In this document: piece by piece, positions 26,001-51,403 of the stretch
Position numbering within the stretch: the stretch's first letter is position 1
Layout of the letters: each line of letters starts with the position of its first letter
Assembly: GCA_044449985.1 (NCBI GenBank)
Contig: JBIOIQ010000006.1
Span: 1 to 51,403, forward strand
Direction of reading: 5' to 3'
Source: Candidatus Saccharimonadia bacterium
GTDB lineage: Bacteria; Patescibacteriota; Saccharimonadia; UBA4664; JBIOIQ01
Length of the DNA: 51,403 nt
Notes under the pieces: generated by a model
What the model saw: the letters and a program-made list of their open reading frames with translations, nothing else
Databases searched by the model: none
What the model was told of the DNA's origin: nothing
Program-made: the position numbers and the translations under genes

Positions 26001-26198
26001 CTATTGTCCGCCCTTTTGGACGTAGCTTCGAACGAATTCCTCGGCGTTTTCACTAAGGACTTCGTCGATCTCATCCAGGAGATCATCGAGCTCCGCTTTG
26101 ATCTTATCGGCTGTGTCGGTCGGCGGTATTTCGATTTCTTCGGTTGTTGTGGTGGAAGTGGCACGTGGACGAGCTCTTTCCTGCTCACGTTTGGCCAT
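26001..26198 (-). CDS. pup: Prokaryotic ubiquitin-like protein Pup
   Basis: C-terminal ELDDLLDEIDEVLSENAEEFVRSYVQKGGQ matches the Pup signature; disordered N-terminus; GGGAGA upstream of the ATG. Confidence 0.93.
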   Translation of the reverse strand: MAKREQERARPRATSTTTTEEIEIPPTDTADKIKAELDDLLDEIDEVLSENAEEFVRSYVQKGGQ

Positions 26199-26463
26199 CA
26201 AATTCTCCCAACATATTGTAGCGGGTGCTACGGAATGACCCCGTTCTACCCATCGTACATTCTTTATGCTTGGTTTAACAGCTCCTTTTCCAGATCTAGT
26301 TAAATTATGCTTAAGAAAAGCTCTATCGCTGGATCTTTAAAAGTTTTTTTATCTCGCGATGCTTGAACAACTCGACACCCGCAATCAATTACGTTACCAT
26401 TAACGGGATGAGTTTTTACGTTTAGCGTGTAAACTAGATATATTATTAGTTTTTTGCGAGAGA

Positions 26464-27600
26464 TTGGAGATTATTTTGGCCGACGAGACCCCTGAAGTAA
26501 AAGACAATACCGATAACAAAACCAAGTCAGAGGATCAACCGGAAAAAAAGGCTGAAGAAGTCTCGAAAAAGGCCGAAACGACTGAAAAGACGCTCAACAT
26601 GGAGAAAGTTGAGACGAAAACTACTGAGTCGAAAAAGAGCAGCACTTCATCAACCAAAAAACCAAAGCCTCAACTAAGTATGCCCAGCAAAAAAGCCATG
26701 ACATGGATTGGTAGCGCAATAGTAGCTGCAATTATTGTCCTTCTCGTTGTCTTTGGAGTACTTATTTATAAATTTAAATCGGATAGCCCCCTGGTTTATG
26801 ATGTGGCTAAATATGTACCGTATCCGGTAGAGCGAGTAAACGGTAGTTTTGTTAGCTATGGAGATTATTTATTTGAGCTGAAATCTGTCAAACAATACTA
26901 CGAAAGCCAAACTACACAATCGGGTCAGGCTGGGATCGATTTCAATTCAGCCGACGGTAAGGCCAAGCTAGCTCAGCTCAGAATCCAAATAATGGCTCAG
27001 CTGACGCAGGACACGGTTACTAAGCAACTGATATCGAAGAATAAGATTAACGTCACATCTAAGCAGGTTACCGATCAGGTAAATCAAATTGTGAATGCTT
27101 CGGGTGGGACGGCGAAAGTCAAAAGTGTGCTTGAGCAGTATTATGGTTGGACGATTAACGACTTAAAAGGCCAAGTTAAATTCCAATTGCAAAAGCAGGC
27201 TCTCCAGACCAAACTTTCAAGCGACAACTCTCTTAATGCCCAGGCCAAAGCCAAAGCTAATAGCATTCTTGCTCAGCTTAGTAGTGGTGCGGATTTTGCC
27301 ACGCTTGCAAAAAAATATTCGCAAGATTCCTCGGCTAGTAATGGGGGAGACATGGGTTTCTTTAGCAAAGGACAGGTTGGTGATACCACATTCGATAACA
27401 CTGCTTTCGGTCAAACTCCAGGACAGGTTTCGGGTGTAATTCATACTAAATTTGGCTACCAAATCATAAAAACAATTGAATTCAATAGCGACAACAGCCA
27501 GGTTCATGCCGCACAAATCTTGGTTGAACCAATCGATTTCACCCAGTTCATTACCGATCAGACAACGGCAGCCAAAGTTACCAAGTACTTTAGCGTCTAG
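26464..27600 (+). CDS. Membrane-anchored PrsA/SurA-type peptidyl-prolyl isomerase
   Basis: Charged N-tail, TM, SurA-N, parvulin GADFATLAKKYSQD...GGDMGFF...TKFGYQIIK; start uncertain. Confidence 0.85.
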   Translation: MEIILADETPEVKDNTDNKTKSEDQPEKKAEEVSKKAETTEKTLNMEKVETKTTESKKSSTSSTKKPKPQLSMPSKKAMTWIGSAIVAAIIVLLVVFGVLIYKFKSDSPLVYDVAKYVPYPVERVNGSFVSYGDYLFELKSVKQYYESQTTQSGQAGIDFNSADGKAKLAQLRIQIMAQLTQDTVTKQLISKNKINVTSKQVTDQVNQIVNASGGTAKVKSVLEQYYGWTINDLKGQVKFQLQKQALQTKLSSDNSLNAQAKAKANSILAQLSSGADFATLAKKYSQDSSASNGGDMGFFSKGQVGDTTFDNTAFGQTPGQVSGVIHTKFGYQIIKTIEFNSDNSQVHAAQILVEPIDFTQFITDQTTAAKVTKYFSV

Positions 27601-35245: not shown

Positions 35246-35644
35246 GTGAATAATCAGAAAATTATTGAAGAGTTTAGGGCAAATCAGGGAAATGTAGGCG
35301 GTCCATTTCAGACCATGAAATTGTTGCTACTTACTTCAATTGGCGCGAAAAGCGGCTTAAAGAGGACCACACCCTTGGCTTATACGATGAATAACGATGA
35401 ATATGTTGTAATAGCCTCAAAAGGGGGTGCGCCAACCCATCCCGATTGGTACTACAATTTAATAGCTAATCCGGATGTAGTGGTTGAAGTTGGGGGCGAT
35501 CAGTTTGATGCTGTTGCGACGGAAGTCAGTGGAGATGAGCGGGATAAACTTTATAGTGCACAGGCTCAGCTTTATCCGACTTTTAATGATTATAAATCCA
35601 ACACCAGTCGAGAAATCCCAGTTTTTAAACTTAAGAAAAAATAG
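35246..35644 (+). CDS. Deazaflavin (F420)-dependent nitroreductase family (DDN-like)
   Basis: IIEEFRAN.G.VGG, LLLTSIGAKSG..RTTPL, ASKGGAPTHPDWYYNLIANP, REIPVF. Confidence 0.88.
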   Translation: MNNQKIIEEFRANQGNVGGPFQTMKLLLLTSIGAKSGLKRTTPLAYTMNNDEYVVIASKGGAPTHPDWYYNLIANPDVVVEVGGDQFDAVATEVSGDERDKLYSAQAQLYPTFNDYKSNTSREIPVFKLKKK

Positions 35645-35650
35645 CTTCCG

Positions 35651-36217
35651 ATGTTACGCCATACAGGCCTAGCAGGTCTTATCGCGCTACTATTTCTTCC
35701 CGGGATAGCCAGTGCGCACGTGATAGTGACCCCCTCGGCTGCGACAGTTGCACAAGAGTTAGTGTTCTCTATTAGTGTTCCCAATGAGCGAAATACCCCC
35801 GTTTCTGAGATTCGTCTTGATATTCCCAATGGGGTAACTAGCGTGCTACCAACCTCTAATATTGGTTGGAATATTACGACAAAAACTGACCAACAAGGCA
35901 ATATCTCTGAAATCGATTGGAAGGGAGGGCAAATACCTGTTGGAGAACGACTTGATTTCTCATTTGGCGCTCAAGTCCCTGCAGTTGCTGGAGTTTTGGA
36001 TTGGAAAGCTTACCAAACGTATGCTGATGGTACGGTAATATCATGGGATCAAAAACCAGCCGGGAGTGATGATTCTACAGGAGTATTAGGACCATATTCG
36101 ACAACTAGTGTAATAAACACAGTTTCTCACACTAGTTTCAATCTGGCTTATTTTACACTAGTTATAGCAGTTCTGGGTGTTCTACTTGGTTTGGTGGCGA
36201 TTTGGCGGAGTCGCTGA
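35651..36217 (+). CDS. YcnI/DUF1775 family copper-binding surface protein
   Basis: Signal peptide ending ASA|H, VPNER, W...IDWKGG, C-terminal TM. Confidence 0.82.
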   Translation: MLRHTGLAGLIALLFLPGIASAHVIVTPSAATVAQELVFSISVPNERNTPVSEIRLDIPNGVTSVLPTSNIGWNITTKTDQQGNISEIDWKGGQIPVGERLDFSFGAQVPAVAGVLDWKAYQTYADGTVISWDQKPAGSDDSTGVLGPYSTTSVINTVSHTSFNLAYFTLVIAVLGVLLGLVAIWRSR

Positions 36218-36742
36218 AGTTGATCTTTTAAACACTATTAAGGCAATTAGAGTTAACATTACAATTATTCCGGTCAGACCTGCAATCAGCCAAATGATAA
36301 TCGAGTTTGTTTTGGTGTCGATAGAATCAACTCTTTGAAAAAAGTTGAGCGTAAAAGCATGAAAGCTATTTCCCGATAAAGGTTGCCCCGTGAGTTTAAT
36401 TGTATATGTTCCAAGAGCAGGAAATACTATTGGGTCAAAGCTGTTATCATCAAGAGCGTTTTGATCGTTAAATGTTGATTTATCGAGAATTACTTTATTT
36501 CCCAAAGTAACTAAGAGGTGACAATTGCAGTTTTTTGCCTGAAATTTGTTGGTATCGTCAAATAAGAAAAAATCTAACCTGGATGCATCTCCAGCTATCG
36601 GCGTATCGTCAGGATCGACATGCAGTAGTACTCTAATCGGCCCATCACTCCGAAACGTATGAGCGTGCGCCGAAAGGGGATAACTGAATAGGATAAAGGA
36701 CGAAACAACTGCGGCCAGACTTAACAATAATTTCTTGCCCAT
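36182..36742 (-). CDS. Secreted membrane-anchored protein with N-terminal His, possibly metal-binding
   Basis: Signal AHA|H, LLHVDPDD.P, CNC, FPALGTY, C-terminal TM. Confidence 0.6.
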   Translation of the reverse strand: MGKKLLLSLAAVVSSFILFSYPLSAHAHTFRSDGPIRVLLHVDPDDTPIAGDASRLDFFLFDDTNKFQAKNCNCHLLVTLGNKVILDKSTFNDQNALDDNSFDPIVFPALGTYTIKLTGQPLSGNSFHAFTLNFFQRVDSIDTKTNSIIIWLIAGLTGIIVMLTLIALIVFKRSTSATPPNRHQTK

Positions 36743-36934: not shown

Positions 36935-36962
36935 TTGAAATCGCTTTTGGTTGAGATATAAT
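36935..36962 (+). promoter_or_regulatory. Sigma70-type promoter
   Basis: TTGAAA-16 nt-TATAAT. Confidence 0.55.
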
Positions 36963-37148: not shown

Positions 37149-38006
37149 ATGACGAAGCTGCAAAGAAGAATTCTTTCCAACTTGCAGATAGCCGAGCTAA
37201 TTAAGTTTAGCCTGGTGGCTTTGTGGTTACTGATCTGGTTCGTTCCGATTGGTACTTTTGCCGATACCCTGCTTTCCCAGGGCTATCAATCGAGCTCTCA
37301 ACTTGCGATCGGTTCGATTGTCAGCCTCGATAGTAATGTCACCGGTACTATTAGCGCTGCAAATACGGGAAATGTTGATAGTTTAATCGGGGTTGTTGTT
37401 GGCGCAAATAATACTCCACTTACGCTCACGAATGGCAGTAGTAATCAGGTCCAGGTGGCCACGAGCGGGGTGGTCAATGTTCTGGTATCAGATATTAGCG
37501 GCACGATTGTGACAGGTGATCCTGTGACCGCCTCACCTATAGACGGAGTCGGTATGAAAGCGACTTCAAATATTAAGGTGATTGGTGTTGCCCAAGGCGA
37601 TCTTGCAACGAGCGTCGGCAAAACTACCCAAACGTTCACGGATCAAAATGGGCAGAAACAGCAGGCACAACTTGGGGTCATTCCGGTACTTGTTAACGTT
37701 GCCTATTACTTTAAGCAGCCCTCGAAGACTTTAATTCCGAACGTTATCCAAAATATTGCTAACACCATTGCAAATAGAGTAGTTTCGCCGCTGCCAATTT
37801 TAGTAAGTTTGGGTATTTTTCTCGTCACGGTTATCAGCATTATGATTTTAATTTATGCCGCTATTCGGAGCAGTATTATTTCTGTTGGTAGAAACCCGTT
37901 GTCCCAAGCAGCGGTATATCGAAGTTTGCTGCAAGTTAGCGCACTCGTGTTATCGATCGTTGGAGTTGCGATTGGAACCATTTATCTAATTTTAACGAAG
38001 CTATGA
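37149..38006 (+). CDS. Membrane protein: signal/TM, extracellular beta domain, and C-terminal ATP-synthase c-subunit-like hairpin without carboxylate
   Basis: C-terminal helix-ISVGRNPLS-helix with no D/E in either helix; first gene of the F1-like operon. Confidence 0.6.
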   Translation: MTKLQRRILSNLQIAELIKFSLVALWLLIWFVPIGTFADTLLSQGYQSSSQLAIGSIVSLDSNVTGTISAANTGNVDSLIGVVVGANNTPLTLTNGSSNQVQVATSGVVNVLVSDISGTIVTGDPVTASPIDGVGMKATSNIKVIGVAQGDLATSVGKTTQTFTDQNGQKQQAQLGVIPVLVNVAYYFKQPSKTLIPNVIQNIANTIANRVVSPLPILVSLGIFLVTVISIMILIYAAIRSSIISVGRNPLSQAAVYRSLLQVSALVLSIVGVAIGTIYLILTKL

Positions 38007-38635
38007 TGTTACCTTTAATCATCGAAGTTGCCATAACGATTGCTAGTTTCTTCCTGGGGTTTTTAGTTGCGGAAATCTATCAATGGTTACGCATAAGGTC
38101 AAATCGAAGAAATGTCCCAATCCAAGTTGTTCCGTCGCAGCCCATTGTGCAAACGAATCTTGACGTAGCCTTGCCCGAGGGATTTAAAGAAAAATTACAA
38201 TCACAGACTCAAGCAGATTATTCCGAAGCTCTTAAAGCTTCGGCTCAACGTTTCATCGATGAGCTTCAGTCTACCTCAGAGCTTCTAAATGGACAGATTA
38301 AAAATCTTGCGACCGGTATTATTGGAAATGAACTTGAGCAGTATCAGAGTGAACTTGCCCAAGCTAGGGCTCAAGCTATATCTGATCTTGGACAGCTTCA
38401 AACGGCGATCAACGAGCAAAAATCAAAGATGGAAGCAGATCTGATGGAAGAAATTAAATCTCAGAAGCAGTTAATGTTATCCCAAATCGACACTAAACTC
38501 GGCGATGCTGTTGGATCTTTTCTGGTTGAAACCTTGCAACATAACGTAGATCTCGGTGCCCAAAATACCTATATTATGGCAATGCTTGAAGAACATAAAG
38601 CTGAGTTAAAAAGAGAACTTAACGATGAAGTATAA
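38003..38635 (+). CDS. Peripheral-stalk b-subunit-like protein
   Basis: N-terminal TM followed by a long Q/E/L-rich coiled coil; sits before the delta-like gene. Confidence 0.55.
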   Translation: MMLPLIIEVAITIASFFLGFLVAEIYQWLRIRSNRRNVPIQVVPSQPIVQTNLDVALPEGFKEKLQSQTQADYSEALKASAQRFIDELQSTSELLNGQIKNLATGIIGNELEQYQSELAQARAQAISDLGQLQTAINEQKSKMEADLMEEIKSQKQLMLSQIDTKLGDAVGSFLVETLQHNVDLGAQNTYIMAMLEEHKAELKRELNDEV

Positions 38636-39107
38636 ACTTCCAGACTCGCTTTATACTCCCCAGAGTATTCATCAAGTGCTCGCCGAACTTGTAGCCCAAA
38701 GGGTCTGGATGCAACACGAGCAGATTAAAACTCAAGTCATCGGAAGTTCGGGAGAATTAAGCACTACACCTGTTGTATCCAAATGGACGAGCGAACTTAT
38801 CAAGGTTAATAATTTATCAACACCTGAAGCAATCGATGAAATAAGTGCAGAACTAACGACGCTACTTGATAAAGCACCTCGCATTCATTTCACATTCGCT
38901 GCGCCGCCACTCGAACTAACTAAAATTCGTTTTGTCGATTGGGTTCGGACTGAACTTCATCCAAATGCTCTGGTTGAGTTTGACTTCTACTCAGGAATTT
39001 TAGGAGGAGTTGTAGTACGAACAGGTAGTCATACTTTGGACTGGTCTTTTCGAATGCAACTGTTAGCTGCTCGGGGAAGATTTGCAGAGGTGCTTCGAAA
39101 TGTTTGA
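38625..39107 (+). CDS. F1 delta-like subunit (divergent)
   Basis: C-terminal ILGGVVVRTGSHTLDWSFRMQL matches the delta/OSCP pattern. Confidence 0.75.
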   Translation: MKYKLPDSLYTPQSIHQVLAELVAQRVWMQHEQIKTQVIGSSGELSTTPVVSKWTSELIKVNNLSTPEAIDEISAELTTLLDKAPRIHFTFAAPPLELTKIRFVDWVRTELHPNALVEFDFYSGILGGVVVRTGSHTLDWSFRMQLLAARGRFAEVLRNV

Positions 39108-40582
39108 TAACCAAAATTTCGAAAAACTTGTCCAGCACGGCAATCTTACGGGAGAGGTAGTGTCGGCAAATGGGTTTATTGTTGAAGTGAAGGGTCTCTA
39201 TGGTGTAAGACTTGGCGCTCAAGTATTGTTTTCAAATGGCGATAGGGGTCTTGTTCGCGAGGCGCATGGTGATAGGGTTACTTTATTTGATTTGGATTCT
39301 GAGGAAATCGAACCCGGGGCTCTGGTTGTTCTAGAACAGAACTTGCTTCAAGTTCCAGTGGGGGAGGGCTTGATTGGTCGGGTTGTAACCCCACTTGGCG
39401 AACCTATTGATGATAAAGGTTCTATAACTTTTGCATCGACTTCGGGTATTTTCAATCCTGCACCCGGCATTATGGCAAGGAGCACATTGAAAGATCAGCT
39501 GGCAACGGGAGTAGCATTTGTAGATATGATGTTTCCGGTCGTGCTTGGTCAAAGAATTGCCGTTCTTGGCGATAGCAAATCTGGTAAAAGTACCTTTTTA
39601 ACACAACTTACACAGAATCAGAAAGGTACAAGTCGGATTGTAATCTATGTACTGATAGGCAAGCGAAAGGTTGAGATTAATAATTTAATAAACAGGCTAA
39701 AAGATTCCGGCGCAATTGCGTATTCGATCGTGGTTGTAGCAAATATCTTCGACTCTTTAACGCAGAGCTATATTGCACCGTACGCGGCCTGTGCGATGGG
39801 AGAATACCTCTGGCATAACGGCTATGATGTAATCTGCATCTATGATGATCTTTCAAGCCACGCAGAAGCTTACCGGGAGTTATCGCTCTTGCAAGAGGTT
39901 GATCCTGGTCGGGATTCATATCCAGGTGACATGTTTTATGCTCATTCTTCGCTTCTAGAACGTGCAGGAAAGTTAAAAGCCACCGGCAAAACCTTAACTG
40001 CGCTACCTGTAATCATGACCCCGAATGATGACATCACGGCCTATCTGCCTACTAGTATTATGTCGATTACCGATGGGCAAATAATATTTGATCTAAAATC
40101 ATTTCGCCAGGGGATTCGGCCAGGTGTAAATGCTGGTCTATCGGTATCCCGGGTGGGTGGTCAGGCCCAAACTGTTCGTCAAAAACGACTGTCTGGGAAT
40201 TTATTTAAGAAACTGGCTCAATTTCACTCGGCAGAAGAATTCTCTCATTTTGGTTCGAGTTTATCGTCGGAAGCGAATGTTGATTTGCAACTCGGTAGAC
40301 ATATTTATGAGGCTCTCAAGCAAACCCCTGAAGAGTTATTTACACTAACCGAGCAACAGCTTGTGTTGGAAACGGTAATTGCTGATGGCGGAAAAGAACC
40401 TCTTGATATTCCCGAGCTGAAAAAATCTGCTATCAGTGTTGGCGCAGAAGTAAAAGATGAAGCTGATTTTGACCGTTTAGTGCCGGAGCTGTTGAAAAAA
40501 CATATGAAACCGATTGAAGCTCCAATTTTACCGCCAAAAGTCCCAGAATCTAATAAGGCTGGCTCTAATCAGGGGAAAGAAC

Positions 40583-40596
<14 letters not shown>
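39100..40596 (+). CDS. atpA: F1-like ATPase alpha subunit (divergent)
   Basis: GRVVTPLGEPID, GQR, P-loop GDSKSGKST, YDDLS, PGRDSYPGDMFY, SITDGQI, SVSRVGG. Confidence 0.88.
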
Positions 40597-43096
<2,500 letters not shown>

Positions 43097-44170
43097 TTAT
43101 TGATCTATGTGGTAATCAAAAACATAGCCAACACCGATGGCTGGTGAGTTTATTGTACTTATGCTAAAGCCACTGGTACTTCGATTAACGTAGTAACCTA
43201 AGGGCACGCCAGCCGTACTGGAAGGATCTGGACCAATCGGTGTAATAGTGACGTGGGGTATTGCACCGTAAGCCGCTCTAAAACTGATATTAACTAGAGT
43301 CCCTGCGGCCGGGGATTGACCGGTATTAATAACAATGGTACCGGCCGTATCGTTGCCGCTTATTGAAACGGTACCAGCGGGGCCAACGCCTGCACCTGTT
43401 GAAACGCCTGGTTGAGAACCGCCCGTAATAATGTGCCCTCCGATGGTCAGCGTTGTGGTCGAGGTGAGACTAGCTGCCGAAAAATTACTTGTGGTCAGAG
43501 AACCCCCAACTGTTAAGTTTCCTGTAACCGTTAAGCCAGCTGTAGTTAGTAGCTGTGCGATCGTCACATCACCCTGGAGATGTGACGTGCCAGCAACTGT
43601 GACGTTGCTTCTAAATGCGGTATCTCCAAGCGTTGTTGCGCCGTTAACATTAAGTTGCGTCAGACTAGTGTTTCCCGCCGATAGTTGCGTGATACTAGTA
43701 CTACCGGCTGTTAGGTTGTTGCCTAATTTGACATCCTTTTCGACCGACAAAGTCCCGTTAAAAACCGCATTAGGTGAGACTACCAAGGATTCAGTGCCTG
43801 TCCCAATGGCGTTTCCACTTACTCCTAGCTGATCGAGTAAGTTCTTGTTCAAAACAATATTTGCGAGACTTCCTGAAGTACTCGATTTTGCCTGCTTCCT
43901 GATAAAATACGTCACAATTGCAACGTTTGCTCCTATCAGGACAACAATTACGGCGAGGGCGATAAAGGTCGCCCGGTGGCTAGGACGGAAAGTTCTGCGT
44001 GCCAGTTTGATCGGTTTCTTTGGTGCGCCTTTTTGCGATTGCGCAGCGTCATCACTACGAGGTTGCAGAACAACCGGACCGGCCTCGGGAGTGTCCGCAG
44101 TATCCGCTTCGGATGAAACCTGCTGTGCTTGATTTCGTTGCGAATCCTTTGATTGATCCATAACTTCCAC
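43097..44170 (-). CDS. Membrane-anchored fibre-like protein (beta-repeat shaft plus C-terminal beta domain)
   Basis: Cytoplasmic N-tail, TM, LTVxG repeats, GHIITGG...ISGNDTAGTIVINTG...PHVTITP; start 44170 (GTG) or 44161. Confidence 0.7.
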   Translation of the reverse strand: MEVMDQSKDSQRNQAQQVSSEADTADTPEAGPVVLQPRSDDAAQSQKGAPKKPIKLARRTFRPSHRATFIALAVIVVLIGANVAIVTYFIRKQAKSSTSGSLANIVLNKNLLDQLGVSGNAIGTGTESLVVSPNAVFNGTLSVEKDVKLGNNLTAGSTSITQLSAGNTSLTQLNVNGATTLGDTAFRSNVTVAGTSHLQGDVTIAQLLTTAGLTVTGNLTVGGSLTTSNFSAASLTSTTTLTIGGHIITGGSQPGVSTGAGVGPAGTVSISGNDTAGTIVINTGQSPAAGTLVNISFRAAYGAIPHVTITPIGPDPSSTAGVPLGYYVNRSTSGFSISTINSPAIGVGYVFDYHIDQ

Positions 44171-44279
44171 TTATTGCTTGCGTAATTATAGCGCTTAAGC
44201 TTTATCCGAAGCAAATCTATAAGGTTAGGTTTATCGTAAGCGGTTTGCAAAACAGGAGGGCATAGGCCACAATATTCAT

Positions 44280-44996
44280 ATGTTGCGGCGTTTGTTATTG
44301 GTGGCGGCGATACTTGGGCTGCTTGCACAAGTTACCTATGCTGATACGCTTAAATCTTCCCATTTTGAGGTTGATGAAAGTTTTATCGGTGGAGGTGGTT
44401 TGATCAATGAAAATTCTTCTAATTTTTCTGCTGCTGAATCGATTGGGGATGCTGGGATAGGACTGTCGAACTCAACTAGTTATATTTCCAACTCAGGATA
44501 TACTACTGATAATGATCCAGCGCTAAGTTTTTACGTTTCTTCCACGCCAGTTACATTTACAACTCTTTCTCCTCTGACTGCAGCAACCGCGACTTCAACT
44601 TTTAGCGTCGTAAATTACACCAGCTGGGGGTATGTCGTCCAGATAATTGGCAATACACCCTCCTATGTCGGTCATTCCATACCTGCTATGGGGACGTTAG
44701 GTCCATCACAGGTGGGGACCGAACAATACGGCATCAACTTAGTAGCAAACATCTCACCAATTTCATTTGGATCAAATCCGGACAATGGAACCCCGGTATT
44801 TGGCTATGGTCAGGCCGCAACGGGGTATAATACAGCGAATAATTATAAATATGCCAGCGGAGACACGATTGCTAATGCTCCTAAAAGCTCTGGTAAAACT
44901 AATTACACCATCTCATATATTATGAATGTGACCAATGTGACGCCCGGTGGAGTCTACACTACCCAGCAACAATTAATTTGCACCGGAACTTACTGA
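44280..44996 (+). CDS. Secreted WxL/pilin-like protein (single-domain paralog)
   Basis: Signal peptide; shares GTEQYGINLVAN, YNTANNYKY and YTTQQQLICTGTY with the three downstream paralogs. Confidence 0.65.
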   Translation: MLRRLLLVAAILGLLAQVTYADTLKSSHFEVDESFIGGGGLINENSSNFSAAESIGDAGIGLSNSTSYISNSGYTTDNDPALSFYVSSTPVTFTTLSPLTAATATSTFSVVNYTSWGYVVQIIGNTPSYVGHSIPAMGTLGPSQVGTEQYGINLVANISPISFGSNPDNGTPVFGYGQAATGYNTANNYKYASGDTIANAPKSSGKTNYTISYIMNVTNVTPGGVYTTQQQLICTGTY

Positions 44997-45018
44997 AAAG
45001 AGTTTGATCTGGAAAAAC

Positions 45019-45058
45019 GTTGTAAAAAATCTGTTGTAAAAAATCTGTTGTAAAAAAT
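45019..45058 (+). repeat. 14-bp tandem repeat, nearly three copies (GTTGTAAAAAATCT)
   Basis: Read directly; ends 2 bp before TTGACA. Confidence 0.9.
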
Positions 45059-45060
45059 AC

Positions 45061-45090
45061 TTGACACCCCTAAAACGCTAATGCTAAGGT
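45061..45090 (+). promoter_or_regulatory. Sigma70 promoter with AGCRTWAGCRT motif in the spacer
   Basis: TTGACA-18 nt-TAAGGT with extended TG; ACGCTAATGCT at 45075-45085. Confidence 0.65.
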
Positions 45091-45159
45091 TGAGCTAACA
45101 AACTATAAACCGTGCAAAAAGCACAACAGACAAACCAAGGGTAGGAAACCGTAACAAAA

Positions 45160-46197
45160 ATGCAAAGATTAAAGCGAGTATTATCAAGACTTGTCATAGT
45201 CGCGCTTATATTAAGCTTGATCCCGGCTTTGCCTGTGTTTGCTGGTCAGATCACTGCCCGGTCTTTGACTATTAGTACATCACAGGGCAATACTGCTGCG
45301 ACTTGGAGTTTTGCATTTACGGTACCTTCAACCACGGTACTGAAGTCTGTTCGTTTTGAAGTCTGCACCACAGCGGCTTTAACTTGTACTGTGCCAACCG
45401 GGTGGGTGAATACCGGCTCTACACTTAGCTCGACCACTGGTATTGGTGCGGGATGGACAATCGATCTCGCAACGAACTCAGATAGTTTGGGCATAACAAA
45501 TGCCAGTAACTCAACGTCTTCTTCCGGTGCTACTACGGTAGTCTTTCACACTGTGACTAACCCAAATACGGTTAATACAAGCTGGTATGTCCGGATGACC
45601 ACGTATTCAACTTCAACTTATTCAACCCAAGTTGATGCTGGTACTGTAACCGCTTCAACTACGCAACAAATTAGTTTGACCGGAATAATGCCTGAGTCAC
45701 TGGTTTTCTGTACAGGTACAACCATAACTGGTACCGACTGCAGTACAATCACGGGAAGCACTGTCAACTTCGGTCTATTCTCGGCCATCTCAACTGCATC
45801 GGGGAGCTCGGTAATGGCTGCTTCAACGAATGCCGGTTCCGGATATGTCATCACGGTCAACGGAAATACGCTTCAGTCCGGCGCAAATTCAATTACGCAA
45901 ATGTCTTCTTCGACAACATCGGTCATTGGAACTAGCCAGTTTGGGATGAACTTAAAAGCTAATACCATTCCTTCGGTCGGTGCTGAAGTTACCGGACCGG
46001 GAAGTTCAGCCTCAACAGCCGGATACAATACTGTGAATAACTTCAAATATACGACTGCCGATACAGTTGCAAACTCAGGCGGAGCCGCCTCGGACGCAAA
46101 TACTTTCACTGTTTCATATATTGTAAACGTCCCAGGAAACCAGGCCGCTGGTACCTATACCACTACACTAACTTACATCTGTACAGCAACTTTTTAA
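45160..46197 (+). CDS. Secreted two-domain WxL/pilin-like protein, paralog 1
   Basis: Signal VFA|G, Thr/Ser-rich beta protein with Cys pairs, C-terminal AGTYTTTLTYICTATF. Confidence 0.75.
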   Translation: MQRLKRVLSRLVIVALILSLIPALPVFAGQITARSLTISTSQGNTAATWSFAFTVPSTTVLKSVRFEVCTTAALTCTVPTGWVNTGSTLSSTTGIGAGWTIDLATNSDSLGITNASNSTSSSGATTVVFHTVTNPNTVNTSWYVRMTTYSTSTYSTQVDAGTVTASTTQQISLTGIMPESLVFCTGTTITGTDCSTITGSTVNFGLFSAISTASGSSVMAASTNAGSGYVITVNGNTLQSGANSITQMSSSTTSVIGTSQFGMNLKANTIPSVGAEVTGPGSSASTAGYNTVNNFKYTTADTVANSGGAASDANTFTVSYIVNVPGNQAAGTYTTTLTYICTATF

Positions 46198-46274
46198 AGG
46201 AGGGTATTGAACAAAAAATAAAACCAATTATTAACTGTTAGAACAACTACACGCACACTTTGAAATTAAAAATC

Positions 46275-46304
46275 TTGACTTCCTCATAATGCTAATGCTA
46301 ATAT
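46275..46304 (+). promoter_or_regulatory. Sigma70 promoter with AGCRTWAGCRT motif in the spacer
   Basis: TTGACT-18 nt-TAATAT with extended TG; ATGCTAATGCT at 46289-46299. Confidence 0.65.
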
Positions 46305-46370
46305 AAGTACAACCTTAAGTGCACAAAGCACGAAAAAGCAAAAACGCAAAAGGGGAAAAAAATAAAAAAT

Positions 46371-47408
46371 ATGAATAGACTGAAGAAGCTATTTTCTCGC
46401 GTAGTAATACTAAGTCTGATACTCAGTATGTTTTACGTGTTACCGGCTTCAGCATCACAAATAACCGCGCGAACGCTGCTAATCAGTACATCGCAGGGAA
46501 ATACACCGGCAACTTGGACACTGACTTTTACCGTGCCAAACTTAACGGCACTCAAGTCAGTTCGCTTTCAAGTTTGTACTACCGCAGCCCTAACCTGTAC
46601 GATACCCACCGGGTGGACAAACACCGGTGCGACTTTGGGTTCAACGATCGGCATCGGGGCAGGCTGGACTATAGATCTCGCCACAAACTCGGATAGCCTT
46701 GGTATCACAAACCCCGGTAATGTAACGGCATCTTCAGGGCCGACGACGGTGGTTTTCAATAATGTCACTAATCCAAATACTGTTAACACTAGTTGGTATG
46801 TTAGGATTACTACTTATACAGATGCGACTTATACAACGCTCCTAGACTCCGGTACTGTCACTGCTTCGACTACTCAACAGATCCAACTAACCGGAATAAT
46901 GCCTGAGTCCCTAGTGTTTTGTACTGGTACCAGTATTTCCGGCACAGACTGCAGTAGTATCACCGGCAACACGGTTAATTTTGGTTTGTTTTCAGCCATC
47001 TCGACTGCATCTGGTACTTCAGTGATGGCTGCTTCAACTAATGCGGGATCTGGTTACGCCATAACGGTAAACGGTAATACCCTGCAGTCTGGCGCCAACT
47101 CCGTCACGCAAATGTCAGCCTCAGCCGCAGCGGTTATAGGCACCAGTCAATTTGGCATGAACTTAAAAGCCAATACTGCGCCTTCGGTTGGTACTGAAGT
47201 AGCAGGACCAGGTTCGTCGGTATCTTCGGTCGGGTATAACACGGTAAATAATTTCAAATATACCACTGGTGACACAGTAGCCAGTTCTTTGGGGGCTGCT
47301 TCAGATGCGAATACTTTTACGGTTTCTTATATTGTAAATGTTCCCGGTAATCAGCAAGCCGGTACTTATACAACCACTCTAACCTATATTTGCACCGCCA
47401 CTTTTTAG
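46371..47408 (+). CDS. Secreted two-domain WxL/pilin-like protein, paralog 2
   Basis: Same length as paralog 1 and colinear with it; identical C-terminus. Confidence 0.75.
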   Translation: MNRLKKLFSRVVILSLILSMFYVLPASASQITARTLLISTSQGNTPATWTLTFTVPNLTALKSVRFQVCTTAALTCTIPTGWTNTGATLGSTIGIGAGWTIDLATNSDSLGITNPGNVTASSGPTTVVFNNVTNPNTVNTSWYVRITTYTDATYTTLLDSGTVTASTTQQIQLTGIMPESLVFCTGTSISGTDCSSITGNTVNFGLFSAISTASGTSVMAASTNAGSGYAITVNGNTLQSGANSVTQMSASAAAVIGTSQFGMNLKANTAPSVGTEVAGPGSSVSSVGYNTVNNFKYTTGDTVASSLGAASDANTFTVSYIVNVPGNQQAGTYTTTLTYICTATF

Positions 47409-47496
47409 TGACTTTGCTCTTATCTACATAAATCGTCTTTACAGCCTAATAGCACTGGTGTTAATCTAGGAGTAATTAAAGTGCTTGTGGTTTTTG

Positions 47497-48567
47497 ATGA
47501 ATTATCGACGCCTGTTGGGTGTGCCGGATGTTCGAAAGCTTGTTCGTTGGCTGACGATCGCGACATTGATCGCGGCTTTGTTGCCAATTTTACCGGCACA
47601 AGCTGCCCAGATAACTAGTCGAAAACTTACGATCGGTACGTCACTTGGAAACGCGGCGACAACTTGGAATTTTAGTTTCACGGTTCCGACTACTGGTACG
47701 ACCTTAAGAGGGATGCGTTTTGAAGTATGCACTACCGCATCTGGTACATGTACCGTGCCGACCGGTTGGGTTAATACGGGGGCCACATTGGCCTCACAAC
47801 CAACAAATGCTGGTACTGGTTGGACAATTGACCTCTCAACTTATTCGGATAGCCTAGGTATTACTACGGGATCCAGTCAATCAATTACCGGTGGTGGAGT
47901 GCTGGCGGTTAACTTCAATACTGTTACGAATCCAAATACGACGAACACCACATGGTATGTCCGAATTTCAACATATAATGGCGCATCATATACTACCCAA
48001 GTTGACACTGGTACTGTGACTGCCAGTACTGCTACACAAATTGTTGTATCCGGAACTATGCCTGAATCTCTCATCTTCTGTACTGGTACAAGTATTACCG
48101 GCACAAATTGTGCCACGATCACAGGCAGTACTGTAGCTCTAGGGTTTTTCTCGCCTACGAGTACGGTTTATGGTACGTCAATCATAGGAGCATCTACTAA
48201 TGCCGGTAGTGGGTATGTTATAACAGTTAACGGGGCAACATTAACTTCGGGGGCTAATACAATTCCTGCTATGGGATCAGCCACTACATCAAATGTTGGG
48301 ACTGGGCAATTCGGGTTAAATCTAGTGGCGAATACGTCTCCGTCTGTAGGTACGGCTGTTTCGGGACCTGGTACTTCAACTGCCTTCACCAACTACGATA
48401 CTGTCAATAATTTCAAGTTTACTACTGGCGACACCGTGGCTACTTCCGGGGGTGCTGCTTCGGATGTCAATGTGTTTACAGTGTCTTATATCGCCAACGT
48501 CGCTGGAAATCAAGCCACTGGCAACTACACCTCAACCCTAACTTATATTTGTACGGCGACTTTCTAG
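47497..48567 (+). CDS. Secreted two-domain WxL/pilin-like protein, paralog 3
   Basis: Signal AQA|A, colinear with paralogs 1 and 2, ends GNYTSTLTYICTATF; start uncertain (47485/47497/47521). Confidence 0.75.
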   Translation: MNYRRLLGVPDVRKLVRWLTIATLIAALLPILPAQAAQITSRKLTIGTSLGNAATTWNFSFTVPTTGTTLRGMRFEVCTTASGTCTVPTGWVNTGATLASQPTNAGTGWTIDLSTYSDSLGITTGSSQSITGGGVLAVNFNTVTNPNTTNTTWYVRISTYNGASYTTQVDTGTVTASTATQIVVSGTMPESLIFCTGTSITGTNCATITGSTVALGFFSPTSTVYGTSIIGASTNAGSGYVITVNGATLTSGANTIPAMGSATTSNVGTGQFGLNLVANTSPSVGTAVSGPGTSTAFTNYDTVNNFKFTTGDTVATSGGAASDVNVFTVSYIANVAGNQATGNYTSTLTYICTATF

Positions 48568-49560
48568 ATGCGCTCTAGGCGACACATCGCGACCATTAGC
48601 TTGGCCATCGGTGTTTTGGGAAACTTGGCTTTGCCTTTTATCGCATCAGGAGCAACATCTCCGGCACCTGCTAACGCACCAGGTTCGGGTGAGGGGCTCG
48701 AATTATCTCCACCAATTGTCCAACTTTCGGCCGATCCGGGTCAAACCATCGTGACTAATATTCGTATCCGAAATATTACCCAAGAAAATTTATATGCGAC
48801 ACCGGTTGCTGATGACTTTGGCGCTAAAGGTGAAAATGGCGATCCGCAAATATTACTTGATGAAACTCAAGCCACTAGATATTCGCTTAAGTATTGGATA
48901 GAGGGTATGGCACCGATACTTCTCGTACCTAATGAAATCAAGACGGCATCGGTAAAAATTGTGATTCCTGCCAATGCTGAACCCGGTGGACACTATGGTG
49001 TAGTAAGGTTCACTGCCACACCGGCCGGATTAGAGGGGAGCGGTGTGGCTTTATCTGCCAGCATCGGAACTCTAATTTTACTTCGAGTAAACGGTCCCGT
49101 GACTGAAAAACTTTCGTTGGTTGATATGTTCTTGAGTAAAAATGGCACTACCGGGTCATTTTTTGAAAATGGGCCACTTATGATTACCCAACGCATTAGT
49201 AACTCGGGGACGGTTCATTTAGAGCCCATTGGTAGCGTCATTGTGACCAATATGTTCGGGAAAAAAATTGCCTCTCTTGATATTAATAATCCGCCCCGAA
49301 ATATTTTACCGGATAGCATTCGCAGGTTTGATGAGACGCTTACGAGTACCTGGATGTTTGGTCGCTACACTGCCAGTCTAAAAGTTACATATGGACAAAC
49401 GAATGGTAGCTTTGTGACAAGTCTGAGCTTTTGGGTCATACCTTGGAAATTATTGCTTATCAGTTTAGTGTTAATAATCATATTCTTGTTTGGACTTCGA
49501 TTTGCAGTGCGACGCTACAACCAATATATAATCGCTCAAGCACGGCGAGCTAAGAAGTAA
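48568..49560 (+). CDS. DUF916/DUF3324 (WxL-interacting)-like membrane-anchored protein, putative assembly chaperone/anchor
   Basis: LELSPP, IRIRN, IPANAEPGGHYG, ISNSGTVHL, NILPDSIRRF, GRYTA, FWVIPW and a C-terminal TM with basic tail; ATG abuts the paralog 3 stop. Confidence 0.7.
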   Translation: MRSRRHIATISLAIGVLGNLALPFIASGATSPAPANAPGSGEGLELSPPIVQLSADPGQTIVTNIRIRNITQENLYATPVADDFGAKGENGDPQILLDETQATRYSLKYWIEGMAPILLVPNEIKTASVKIVIPANAEPGGHYGVVRFTATPAGLEGSGVALSASIGTLILLRVNGPVTEKLSLVDMFLSKNGTTGSFFENGPLMITQRISNSGTVHLEPIGSVIVTNMFGKKIASLDINNPPRNILPDSIRRFDETLTSTWMFGRYTASLKVTYGQTNGSFVTSLSFWVIPWKLLLISLVLIIIFLFGLRFAVRRYNQYIIAQARRAKK

Positions 49561-49602
49561 GTTCAGATGAAGAACAGGTAGCATAAGTGGTATAATACGG
49601 GC

Positions 49603-50586
49603 GTGTATTCTCGTATTAAAATTAGTTACCATCGCTACAGCGGAAGATTTTTACCCCACGCACATACATCATATGCCAGTCTGGCTTTTTTAATTATTTT
49701 GATGGCGGTAGTGCTCGGGACTACTACCGTTGGGGTAGAGTCGTACAATTATGGAGATCCAAATCCCGGTCCTTTTGCTGGTTCGGTCGCTCTTACCGGA
49801 ACGGTCAAAGAACCGCCACCGACACAGGCCGCAGTGATTACGAATCCGACGAATGGTCAGAGTTTTAGCGCAACTCCGATTACCGTTAATGGCACCTGTC
49901 CCACCGGTACGATTATCGAGCTGTTTAAAAATAATATATTTGCTGGCTCGACACCCTGTCAGAACGACGCGACTTTTAGTCTCCAGACAGATTTGCTCTA
50001 TGGGCCAAATGCATTAGTTGCCCAAGTATTTGACGTACTAGATCAGGCTGGTCCATTTTCGAATACGGTAAATGTGAATTACACCGCCTTGCCACAACAG
50101 ACGGCACCGATAGATTCGAGTAACCTTAATGATATCCAGTTATTACTCAGAACTAGCCCCGTATACCGAGGAATCTTTCCAGGTACTCCCTTAAGCGTGC
50201 CGATTGACGTGATTGCCGGAAGTCCTCCATTTGCTATCAATATCGACTGGGGAGATAACACGAGTGATCTTATATCTCGAGCCGATAATACTGAATTTAA
50301 TGCCAATCATACCTATGCGAAGCCGGGGACTTATCAAATAACGCTTCGTGCGACCGATAACAAAGGTCGTTTGGCATTTTTGACTTTTATTGCAGTTGTA
50401 AACGGGAAAGCTGAAATTGCCGGATCGGTTACTACTACTCCGACGCTAACCTCTGGACGTAATACGTTGTTAATTGTCTGGCCACTCCTGGGAGTAGCCG
50501 GTTTGCTGGTGTCAAGTTTCTGGTTTGGCGAAAGGCGTGAAAAACAAAAACTAGCCGAACGCGGCGAGTTAATTCCGGCGACATAA
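49603..50586 (+). CDS. Membrane protein with Ig-like and PKD domains
   Basis: N-terminal TM, ITNPTNG Ig-like domain, IDWGD...HTYAKPGTY PKD motif, C-terminal TM. Confidence 0.75.
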   Translation: MYSRIKISYHRYSGRFLPHAHTSYASLAFLIILMAVVLGTTTVGVESYNYGDPNPGPFAGSVALTGTVKEPPPTQAAVITNPTNGQSFSATPITVNGTCPTGTIIELFKNNIFAGSTPCQNDATFSLQTDLLYGPNALVAQVFDVLDQAGPFSNTVNVNYTALPQQTAPIDSSNLNDIQLLLRTSPVYRGIFPGTPLSVPIDVIAGSPPFAINIDWGDNTSDLISRADNTEFNANHTYAKPGTYQITLRATDNKGRLAFLTFIAVVNGKAEIAGSVTTTPTLTSGRNTLLIVWPLLGVAGLLVSSFWFGERREKQKLAERGELIPAT

Positions 50587-50672
50587 TTTGTTCAATTATT
50601 ACAGGTTCAAAATAAGCATAATAAGCTTGGCAAACCAGTAAAAAACGCTTATGCTATAGGCATAGGAGTTTA

Positions 50673-51403
50673 GTGCAAAACATATTGTTCGGTGACTGGC
50701 TACCGCCGAAAATTAGGCGGGTCAAACGCCCCCGCAATATTCACCGAAGCTTCAGAAGGTGGGTAAGGGTGGCAATAAGTATGGTTGGTGCGACTTTCTT
50801 GATCGTACCTTCTTTGACGCCGACCCAAGCTTCTGCCGGCATTAATCCTGAGATCAATTTTCAAGCAAGGCTCGAGAATTCCCTCGGTGCAACAGTACCA
50901 GACGGTTACTACAACATAGAGTTTAAAATCTACCAGGACGGCACCGGTTGTGTGTCGAGTGGTAGTTCTCCCTGTGGGGGAACGTTGAAGTGGACGGAAG
51001 ACTGGTTAAATTATAATTCCCAAGGTGTACAAGTAAAAAATGGCTATTTTTCGGTCCTCTTAGGTTCCGTTAATGCTTTTGGGGCAAGCGTTGATTTTAA
51101 CCAGAATACCCTTTGGCTCTCTCTCAACATCGGCGACACTACAAGTGCCACGACTTTTGCCGGCGCAACCCCGGACGGTGAAATGCTCCCGTTCAAACGA
51201 CTCGCCGCCAATCCTTATGCGCTTAACACCAGTGAGCTGGGTGGCTTAACCAGTTCACAATATGTCCAACTTAGCCAAGGTGTTCAAACGGATAGTTCTT
51301 CAACAAATGCCTCAATTTTTATCAACAAGACGGCCACCTCAGCCAATATTCTTGATTTGCAACGGGGAGGTGCAGATGTGTTGTTAATTAACAATGCTGG
51401 TCA
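50673..51403 (+). CDS. 3'-truncated large secreted fibre-like protein (absent from the ORF track)
   Basis: AGGAG then GTG 50673; frame open to the window end; signal ending ASA|G, then INFQARL...DGYYNIEFKIY...VKNGYFSVLLG...EMLPFKRLAANPYALN, a typical N-terminal domain of large CPR fibre proteins. Confidence 0.75.
   Translation, partial: MQNILFGDWLPPKIRRVKRPRNIHRSFRRWVRVAISMVGATFLIVPSLTPTQASAGINPEINFQARLENSLGATVPDGYYNIEFKIYQDGTGCVSSGSSPCGGTLKWTEDWLNYNSQGVQVKNGYFSVLLGSVNAFGASVDFNQNTLWLSLNIGDTTSATTFAGATPDGEMLPFKRLAANPYALNTSELGGLTSSQYVQLSQGVQTDSSSTNASIFINKTATSANILDLQRGGADVLLINNAG

Follow-up and report, generated by a model that had tools for sequence, protein, structure and literature searches.

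Introduction

Pam pili are thought to make the first host contact of ultra-small parasitic bacteria, and each new operon extends the catalogue of their subunits and adhesins. The Pam families were defined from Candidatus Mycosynbacter amalyticus (Troman et al. 2026, bioRxiv, PMC13278184). That preprint reports cryo-electron microscopy (cryo-EM) of two-domain pilins linked by donor-strand exchange; the domains are incomplete immunoglobulin (Ig)-like folds completed by a neighbour's strand, and the fibre is extended and uncoiled. In this system a pilin has nine strands in its N-terminal beta-sandwich and donates a linker strand to the subunit after it, and PamT is a lone truncated Ig-like domain that has no donor linker. 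AlphaFold modelling in the same work suggested that PamT nucleates the tip, that the membrane-anchored, PapD-like proteins PamC and PamD prime the subunits, and that PamR ends growth and anchors the fibre; in the authors' view no trans-envelope machine is needed. They also note 'ATP synthase components' and a tail-fibre-like gene near pam, and suggest a link to metabolism. Here we analyse an island of eight genes (43097-51403) that adjoins an F1-like ATPase operon (37149-43096) in a Candidatus Saccharimonadia genome of 692 kb, 18 contigs and 76% completeness. The stretch of DNA analysed, called the window below, is the whole of one contig, C6, and is 51,403 bases long.

Two other described systems bear on this locus. 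In the Elr pilus of Enterococcus faecalis, the polymerisation of WxL pilins, by donor-strand exchange, is the work of a membrane-anchored DUF916/DUF3324 chaperone; that preprint presents the system as confined to Bacillota and makes no mention of Pam, Candidate Phyla, Patescibacteria or Saccharibacteria (10.64898/2026.10.17.759780). In mycoplasmas, the MIB-MIP surface system depends on a Type 3 'F1-like X0' ATPase (PMC12994834), and by analogy this precedent makes a tie between an ATPase and a surface system possible. Closer to the present organism, the predicted F-type ATP synthase of Southlakia, which may be of the canonical kind, the F1-like kind or both, was dispensable (Wang et al. 2023, PMC10633639).

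A probable Pam pilus operon

Our analysis leads us to conclude that the island is very probably a Pam pilus operon, in which PamT, three pilins, one tethered chaperone and PamR are bracketed by two fibre or adhesin genes, and that its adjacency to the ATPase is dispensable and not needed for the pilus. The appendage itself is a known system, and this operon is a further member. A first-pass annotation, made from the sequence without database searches, had placed eight genes here, and their open reading frame (ORF) coordinates bear it out. The last ATPase gene, epsilon (42797-43096, plus strand), and an ORF of 357 amino acids (aa) on the minus strand (43097-44170), named fib357 here, abut stop to stop at 43096/43097 with zero gap, and 109 bases separate the start of fib357 from the seven plus-strand genes that fill 44280-51403. 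The fibre gene is convergent with epsilon and divergent from PamT. The island has its own divergent promoter region, set apart from epsilon by one convergent gene.

All eight products carry an N-terminal hydrophobic segment, with an additional C-terminal one in the chaperone and in PamR. Pattern searches found no LPxTG motif in the eight proteins and, in their first 60 residues, no class III prepilin-like motif; the pilin N-termini resemble ordinary Sec signals ending A-x-A. Hydropathy and patterns agree, in short, with the earlier description of products that are all exported or membrane-anchored and free of LPxTG and class III signals. At E<=1 in Pfam, none of the eight proteins matches an usher family or a WxL domain.

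The four related secreted proteins of the first-pass annotation proved to be PamT and three Pam pilins, each above its NCBIfam cut-off. PamT (44280-44996, plus strand), a single-domain tip pilin, matches NF058579 with 290.9 bits (cut-off 240) over residues 5-238; it is about 110 aa shorter than the pilins, and the family match is full-length. The three two-domain pilins (45160-46197, 46371-47408 and 47485-48567, plus strand; 345-360 aa) match the Pam pilin C domain NF058581 with 169.2, 166.2 and 163 bits (cut-off 55), and this model had no match in 14 control genomes. At the protein level the first and second pilins are 83% identical, which implies a recent tandem duplication (45160-47408); the third is about 65% identical to the first. 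At least 2639 of 8000 scored candidates are pilin relatives at E<=1e-5, and where the source names them it calls them 'hypothetical protein'. Searched by sequence against solved structures at E<=1, the pilin and the chaperone had no match and the fibre one, at chance level. We also considered a conserved odd cysteine near the C-termini of the pilins and PamT as an inter-subunit disulfide, and rejected it: it is present in just 2 of 13 PamT and 14 of 32 pilin homologues.

The gene that separates the pilins from PamR (48568-49560, plus strand; 330 aa) encodes a membrane-tethered pilus chaperone of PamC/PamD type, the DUF916-like anchor of the first-pass annotation. Its own sequence matches no Pfam family, and the assignment was made with an AlphaFold2 model, Foldseek and homologues. 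PF06030 (WxLIP_PGBD, formerly DUF916) is matched by 15 of 20 homologues, with a best E of 3e-9. The model (predicted local distance difference test, pLDDT, 85.2) has two beta-sandwich domains and a C-terminal transmembrane helix at 293-329, and its best match in the PDB is the WxLIP protein of Enterococcus faecium (9i1y/9i25, E 1.3e-11), followed by CfaA, YadV, FimC, PapD, CsuC, SafB and Caf1M. The membrane protein with Ig/PKD features that follows is PamR, an RbmA-like terminator and membrane anchor (49603-50586, plus strand; NF058578, 367 bits, cut-off 300). It has a PKD match (E 2.2e-6) and hydrophobic segments at 20-47 and 287-308, the latter being its C-terminal transmembrane helix.

The last gene (50673-51403, plus strand), which had been taken for the start of a large fibre protein, indeed runs off the contig end. 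The 243 aa seen open with a conserved module of about 200 aa and are the N-terminal part of a large secreted adhesin or fibre; full-length homologues, which follow PamR in related loci, are 1061-2805 aa long and carry variable CBM_4_9, right-handed beta-helix and phage-depolymerase-like parts. We looked for its continuation and found no terminal overlap of C6 with another contig. On contig C12, a minus-strand ORF of 1108 aa begins at the last base, with its 5' end open at the contig end, and resembles the middle parts of big adhesins. It is a candidate that may continue either the last gene of the window or a fibre gene cut by the end of contig C8.

At the other end of the island, the membrane-anchored beta-repeat fibre recognised by the first-pass annotation is fib357, an N-anchored, tail-fibre-like protein. 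An alignment of 19 homologues, a model and viral matches give it a variable cytoplasmic tail, one transmembrane helix (hydrophobic 63-91), a repetitive, beta-solenoid-like stalk that weakly matches Bactofilin (E 4e-4), and, at the C-terminus, a strongly conserved domain of about 110 aa. It belongs to a fibre superfamily with a shared N-terminal anchor module. The model (pLDDT 61.5) is confident only at about 250-357, a beta-sandwich domain, and poor elsewhere; in VIA-align its best Z is 7.5, below the level that counts, with generic beta-solenoid and beta-sandwich matches only, and tailspikes (Z 6.3) and Helix pomatia agglutinin (Z 5.7) lower down. Among viral proteins, an 884-aa one from uncultured Caudovirales matches best (E 2.5e-10, 132 columns, 30% identity); annotated tail-fibre and minor-tail proteins come next. 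A prophage remnant was rejected as an origin of the island: the phage-like part is the C-terminal domain of the fibre only, and no further phage gene is present in the island. With their lectin- or CBM-like or phage-tail-fibre-like ends, fib357 and the adhesin most likely recognise the surface of the host cell.

By homology with the work on Ca. M. amalyticus and on Elr/WxL pili, Sec would carry all subunits across the membrane. The chaperone, which its C-terminal helix keeps in the membrane, would cap the incomplete Ig-like C-domain of each pilin; polymerisation would proceed by donor-strand exchange, with PamT first, and PamR would stop growth and tie the fibre to the membrane. Outside the membrane, no ATP-driven machine would be required.

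The likeness to the Ca. M. amalyticus system extends from the families, matched above cut-off, to a chaperone with a C-terminal transmembrane helix, export through Sec, the absence of usher and sortase signal, and ATP-synthase-like and tail-fibre-like neighbour genes. Compared with the published description (PamA/B/E and PamC/D), the present operon differs in having one chaperone rather than two and no pilin of the 55-kDa size of PamA. The earlier suggestion of a non-type-IV appendage, for example for host attachment, proves right and becomes more specific: a Pam pilus operon of the kind seen by cryo-EM in Ca. M. amalyticus. With the Elr/WxL pilus of E. faecalis and with E. faecium WxLIP the island shares a two-domain, membrane-anchored chaperone of the same fold (9i1y, 9i25; E 1.3e-11), and with the Elr pilus it would share linear growth by donor-strand exchange without an usher and a modular tip adhesin; unlike Elr/WxL, its pilins have no WxL domain, and a transmembrane-anchored PamR takes the place of an LPxTG base or sortase anchoring. 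Chaperone-usher pili (Pap/Fim, CFA/I, Csu) have the PapD-like chaperone fold in common with it. They differ in using an usher and an outer membrane, both absent here, whereas the present chaperone is tethered to the membrane and Pam pilins, as described in the preprint on Ca. M. amalyticus, are two-domain and build an extended, uncoiled fibre.

Distribution of the Pam block and the F1-like operon

The first-pass annotation had named synteny and co-occurrence across Candidate Phyla Radiation (CPR) genomes as one way to check a link between the two blocks. We compared 101 Saccharimonadia genomes, for which genome codes (G001 and so on) and family codes (f2, f3 and so on) are coded labels. Related genomes are non-independent, and the counts below are descriptive rather than statistical tests. 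Pam markers were scored at fixed thresholds, so divergent Pam-like loci, such as one on contig C4 of the present genome, are under-counted.

F1-like beta loci number 70, in 63 of the 101 genomes. Of these, 19 (from 18 genomes and 10 GTDB families) share a contig with a Pam marker no more than 15 kb away. The number is a lower bound, since contigs break and a further locus, in G031, has a pilin missed by the marker list. Pam is present anywhere in 43 of the 63 genomes with an F1-like operon, and 20 have no Pam marker. A second count was centred on g1, the first gene of the F1-like operon (described below), and covered 44 g1-alpha-beta operons with at least 3 kb of downstream sequence. Pam lies within 12 kb at 15 and an N-anchored fibre gene adjoins 29, while 15 have neither (10 in f2, 2 in f3 and 3 in f16). 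In all 15 Pam-adjacent operons of this set a fibre gene stands between epsilon and PamT. The order found in the window, a fibre gene divergent from PamT, pilins, chaperone, PamR and adhesin, recurs in many loci.

The same arrangement is kept where the ATPase is not at hand. For families f2 and f3, 11 PamT loci were examined; at all 11 the fibre gene points away from PamT as in the window, a big adhesin usually comes after PamR, and no F1 genes occur in the 10.5-20 kb stretches around them. Because fibre and Pam stay together away from F1 at all of these loci, the whole island is one block that moves as a unit. When we took 20 Pam loci without a prior ATPase link, F1 genes were nearby in only one (G095). 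Three genomes, G002, G015 and G087 (97, 99 and 94% complete), have clear Pam loci and neither PF00006 nor a beta match, which implies that the pilus can be assembled without the ATPase; motor-free assembly also fits the energy-free chemistry of donor-strand exchange. G055 has a PamR-like gene only. In the present genome, the divergent Pam-like locus on C4 has no ATPase genes. On C13 (10316-12424, locus L092) a fibre-like gene (361 aa, minus strand) and a PamR-like gene (329 aa, plus strand) form a divergent pair followed by three secreted-size ORFs; the pair comes directly after ligA-gatCAB-YtxH, and there are no ATPase genes there.

Nine full-length g1 homologues come from outside the class, and 8 of these stand first in an F1-like operon. 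Pam or fibre matches were found at none of the 7 out-of-class operons with downstream DNA, and in 4 of 5 out-of-class CPR genomes with such operons there was no Pam pilin domain. Within the class, the genes upstream of g1 at Pam-adjacent loci vary by family, and the downstream fibre-Pam side is constant. In a FastTree phylogeny of beta, whose support values were not inspected, Pam-adjacent operons fall in several clades interleaved with Pam-less ones (f2, f3, part of f4, f9), and the deepest clades of the class (f12, f16, f20) have long fibres and no Pam.

The first-pass annotation would have given up its link had the two blocks occurred independently and been adjacent only in this genome. They do occur independently, but they are adjacent elsewhere too, at the 19 loci in ten families; adjacency is partial in the class and absent from the F1-like operons outside it. 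We conclude that the adjacency is an old arrangement, a conserved neighbourhood in part of the class, which is dispensable and is not obligate coupling. On the simplest account, the F1-like operon would be the older element, fibre genes would have joined it, and the Pam block would have arrived next to it within the class and left again on two or more occasions. The neighbourhood could reflect co-regulation of surface structures, or a real tie of the ATPase or g1 to N-anchored fibres.

Relative to what is in print, four points are new. As they move through genomes, the pilus genes stay in one block with the tail-fibre-like gene and the modular adhesin; what has been called 'ATP synthase' beside that block is a second F1-like ATPase without a proton channel; the two are neighbours at about a quarter of the F1-like loci examined; and such pilus gene sets occur in genomes without any F-type ATPase. 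The question thus shifts away from whether the motor builds the pilus.

The neighbouring F1-like ATPase

Seven plus-strand genes make up the operon next to the island. By sequence and hydropathy, the 285-aa product of the first, g1 (37149-38006), has a signal peptide; an outward domain of about 170 aa comes next, and two helices at the C-terminus form a hairpin that resembles subunit c. The hairpin has a GRNP loop, with G-R-N-P invariant in the alignment, and is without a conserved carboxylate; G[RK][NQ]P is found in the loop of 79 of 80 homologues, and helix 2 contains an acidic residue in 8. There follow a b-like subunit with one N-terminal transmembrane helix (38003-38635; weak match to F0F1 subunit B, E 0.026) and a delta-like subunit (38625-39107; weak matches to delta/OSCP, E 0.01-0.05), whose position is kept in 44-53 related loci. 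The remaining genes are alpha (39082-40596; Pfam ATP-synt_ab), gamma (40514-41440; ATP-synt), beta (41437-42846; ATP-synt_ab) and the short epsilon already described (ATP-synt_DE_N). Alpha scores 409.6 against an NCBIfam equivalog cut-off of 554, and 396.9 with the atpA model against 484.45; beta scores 431.1 with atpD against 462.85, so that both fall short of the equivalog level. The two proteins are 42-43% identical to a canonical pair. Beta retains the P-loop, GER motif and Walker B, and alpha retains SVSRVG, motifs that we take to have catalytic roles.

At E<=1 this genome, at 76% completeness, contains neither subunit c (PF00137) nor subunit a (PF00119), and the operon has no room for them. 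It has two F1-like operons, on C6 and C8. In the 101-genome sample, 74 genomes have alpha and beta genes; 46 have a c gene, always beside a higher-scoring alpha, and 28 have alpha and beta and no c, with subunit a also absent from the 4 of these that were tested. One genome of the same family as the present one, G061, has a, c, alpha and beta at 605-611 kb plus two F1-like operons. Because G061 has both kinds, the canonical enzyme of the present genome may lie in the missing quarter. We conclude that the neighbouring operon encodes a second F1-like ATPase, distinct from the housekeeping ATP synthase: it has no subunit a, and its membrane subunit combines a c-like hairpin with an outward domain. 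With no Fo proton path, it is unlikely to make ATP or pump protons. In this it departs from the 'ATP synthase' of the Pam preprint: the neighbour here is an a-less and c-less F1-like paralogue, adjacent to Pam at 19 of 70 loci. Among the papers searched, none pairs 'F1-like' with Saccharibacteria or Patescibacteria.

A close comparison is with mycoplasmas, among which M. mobile reportedly has an F1-like ATPase in its gliding machinery. Like that enzyme and the F1-like X0 ATPase, the present one is an atypical F1-type ATPase without a normal Fo in a genome-reduced, host-dependent bacterium; like the mycoplasma F1-like ATPase it also comes with a membrane protein that combines a signal peptide and an outward part with two transmembrane helices at the C-terminus, and genes of a surface system adjoin it. 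The CPR alpha and beta fall short of the mycoplasma families: beta scores 375 with the MSC_0618 model (cut-off 570) and alpha 237.8 with MSC_0619 (cut-off 520), and all four models for MSC_0618/0619 and MMOB1660/1670 stay below cut-off. The CPR operon further differs in having b-like and delta-like genes and no 12-transmembrane-helix protein, and its co-occurrence with a surface system is partial, whereas that in mycoplasmas is systematic.

Several observations concern g1 and related operons. The second F1-like operon of this genome (C8:20722-28980) has the same gene order and is followed by a plus-strand N-anchored fibre gene of 632 or more aa that runs off the contig end; an in-frame TAA divides its beta gene into C8:25343-26188 and 26195-26650. 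The outward domain of g1 (about residues 40-165; 37260-37650 in the window) recurs across class and phylum in giant proteins (ORFs of about 700-4000 aa), also in genomes without alpha/beta ATPase (for example G001, G002, G040, G052 and G082), and its sole Pfam hint is a weak phage minor-capsid match (E 4e-4). Standalone g1 paralogues, with no ATPase genes, have a long N-anchored fibre directly after them at 13 of 16 loci (L035, L047, L048, L053, L056, L064, L069, L075, L077, L085, L090, L091 and L036); the c-like fusion protein is therefore tied to fibres even without an adjoining motor. At eight f2 loci (L023, L024, L030, L032, L034, L037, L040 and L046) the genes after the F1-like epsilon are an ABC transporter pair and DsbA-like and DsbB-like genes, and neither fibre nor Pam genes follow. 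At L025 (G085) several ORFs of 200-740 aa lie between the alpha, gamma and beta genes of the F1-like operon, in what looks like an insertion.

What the ATPase might serve

Several observations weigh against our reading of the island as a pilus operon whose ATPase neighbour is dispensable. Both systems lie within 15 kb in 18 of the 43 genomes that have both, in 10 families, against our own rough estimate of about 4% by chance (two loci in a 0.8-Mb genome), and the constant fibre-Pam side beside a varying upstream side argues for selection, or at least for strong inertia. Fibres adjoin 29 of 44 F1-like operons and 13 of 16 standalone g1 loci and the first gene of the island belongs to their superfamily, so the ATPase could still serve part of the island. 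Donor-strand exchange in these particular pilins is inferred from family membership. At 76% completeness, this genome may also have a canonical F1Fo enzyme. No sequencing run covering 42000-51403 of the window was found, nor any expression data.

The first-pass annotation had suggested that the F1-like motor may power assembly, export or movement of the appendage, which found no support for assembly or export; that the ATPase drives the Pam appendage itself we consider very unlikely. The Pam markers that lie within 15 kb at 19 of the 70 F1-like beta loci, spread over 10 families and in the same gene order, would fit such a drive, and so would the catalytic motifs retained in beta, the lack of an Fo proton path that makes ATP synthesis or proton pumping an unlikely job, the mycoplasma F1-like X0 ATPase needed for MIB-MIP, and the remark in the Pam preprint that ATP synthase genes co-localise with pam (PMC13278184). 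Yet three genomes have clear Pam loci and no alpha/beta ATPase, the block lies elsewhere at 11 of 11 f2/f3 PamT loci, 20 of 63 F1-like genomes have no Pam marker, and out of class, where 8 of 9 full-length g1 homologues head an F1-like operon, Pam or fibre accompanies none of 7 and the pilin domain is missing from 4 of 5 genomes. In the window, a convergent gene intervenes between epsilon and PamT and the island has a divergent promoter region of its own. Donor-strand exchange, moreover, needs no external energy in chaperone-usher pili, nor does it in the Elr pilus. Least credible of all is a reading in which the island forms no filament and encodes a cell-surface protein complex of Csc/WxL type that captures carbohydrate or serves wall-bound display. 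The WxLIP/DUF916-like chaperone and the carbohydrate-binding modules of the adhesin homologues recall such complexes, but the eight proteins have no WxL domain at E<=1 and no LPxTG partner, the pilins and PamT belong to a family with members seen as filaments by cryo-EM (PMC13278184), and the WxL/Elr cluster itself builds a pilus (10.64898/2026.10.17.759780).

Since adjacency recurs at 19 of 70 loci in 10 families, a looser functional tie is possible, perhaps through the N-anchored fibres. It is unlikely, in our estimate, that the ATPase and a c-like ring serve to insert, hold, turn or tension these fibres rather than the pilus, with Pam adjoining only through its fibre gene. An anchor-module fibre gene does stand beside 29 of 44 F1-like operons and 13 of 16 standalone g1 genes, and between epsilon and PamT in 15 of 15 Pam-adjacent operons, and the g1 outward domain recurs in giant surface proteins; but the fibre also travels with Pam far from ATPase or g1 (the 11 of 11 f2/f3 loci, and C13 here), 15 of 44 F1-like operons have neither fibre nor Pam, and a fibre match occurs at 0 of 7 out-of-class operons. 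There is, besides, no known mechanism for a stator without a wall anchor, and the b-like subunit offers a transmembrane helix only. A complex prediction for g1 (39-285) with fib357 (60-357), both supplied as alignments, gave a score of 0.01 against a mark of 0.32 and bears on neither side. A broader version, for which we see a small chance, makes the a-less F1-like ATPase and its carboxylate-free c-like ring, with the outward domain, a machine that uses ATP to act mechanically on N-anchored, tail-fibre-like surface fibres. The Pam block would then stay beside it in ten Saccharimonadia families since its fibre, and perhaps the base of the pilus, is a client; this would be a CPR counterpart of F1-like X0/MIB-MIP. 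The looser motor-fibre link is the only part with real novelty, and it is unproven.

Sequence upstream of the F1-like operon

A promoter and terminator scan of the window gave counts at or below shuffled expectation (25 against 27.1, and 12 against 14.0); the top promoter-like site, at 36935-36962, is upstream of g1. Just upstream of the F1-like operon, 35246-36742 holds a gene of the F420H2-dependent quinone reductase family, a gene for a DUF1775 (YcnI-like) secreted protein, and a convergent gene for a 186-aa protein with a signal peptide and a C-terminal transmembrane helix.

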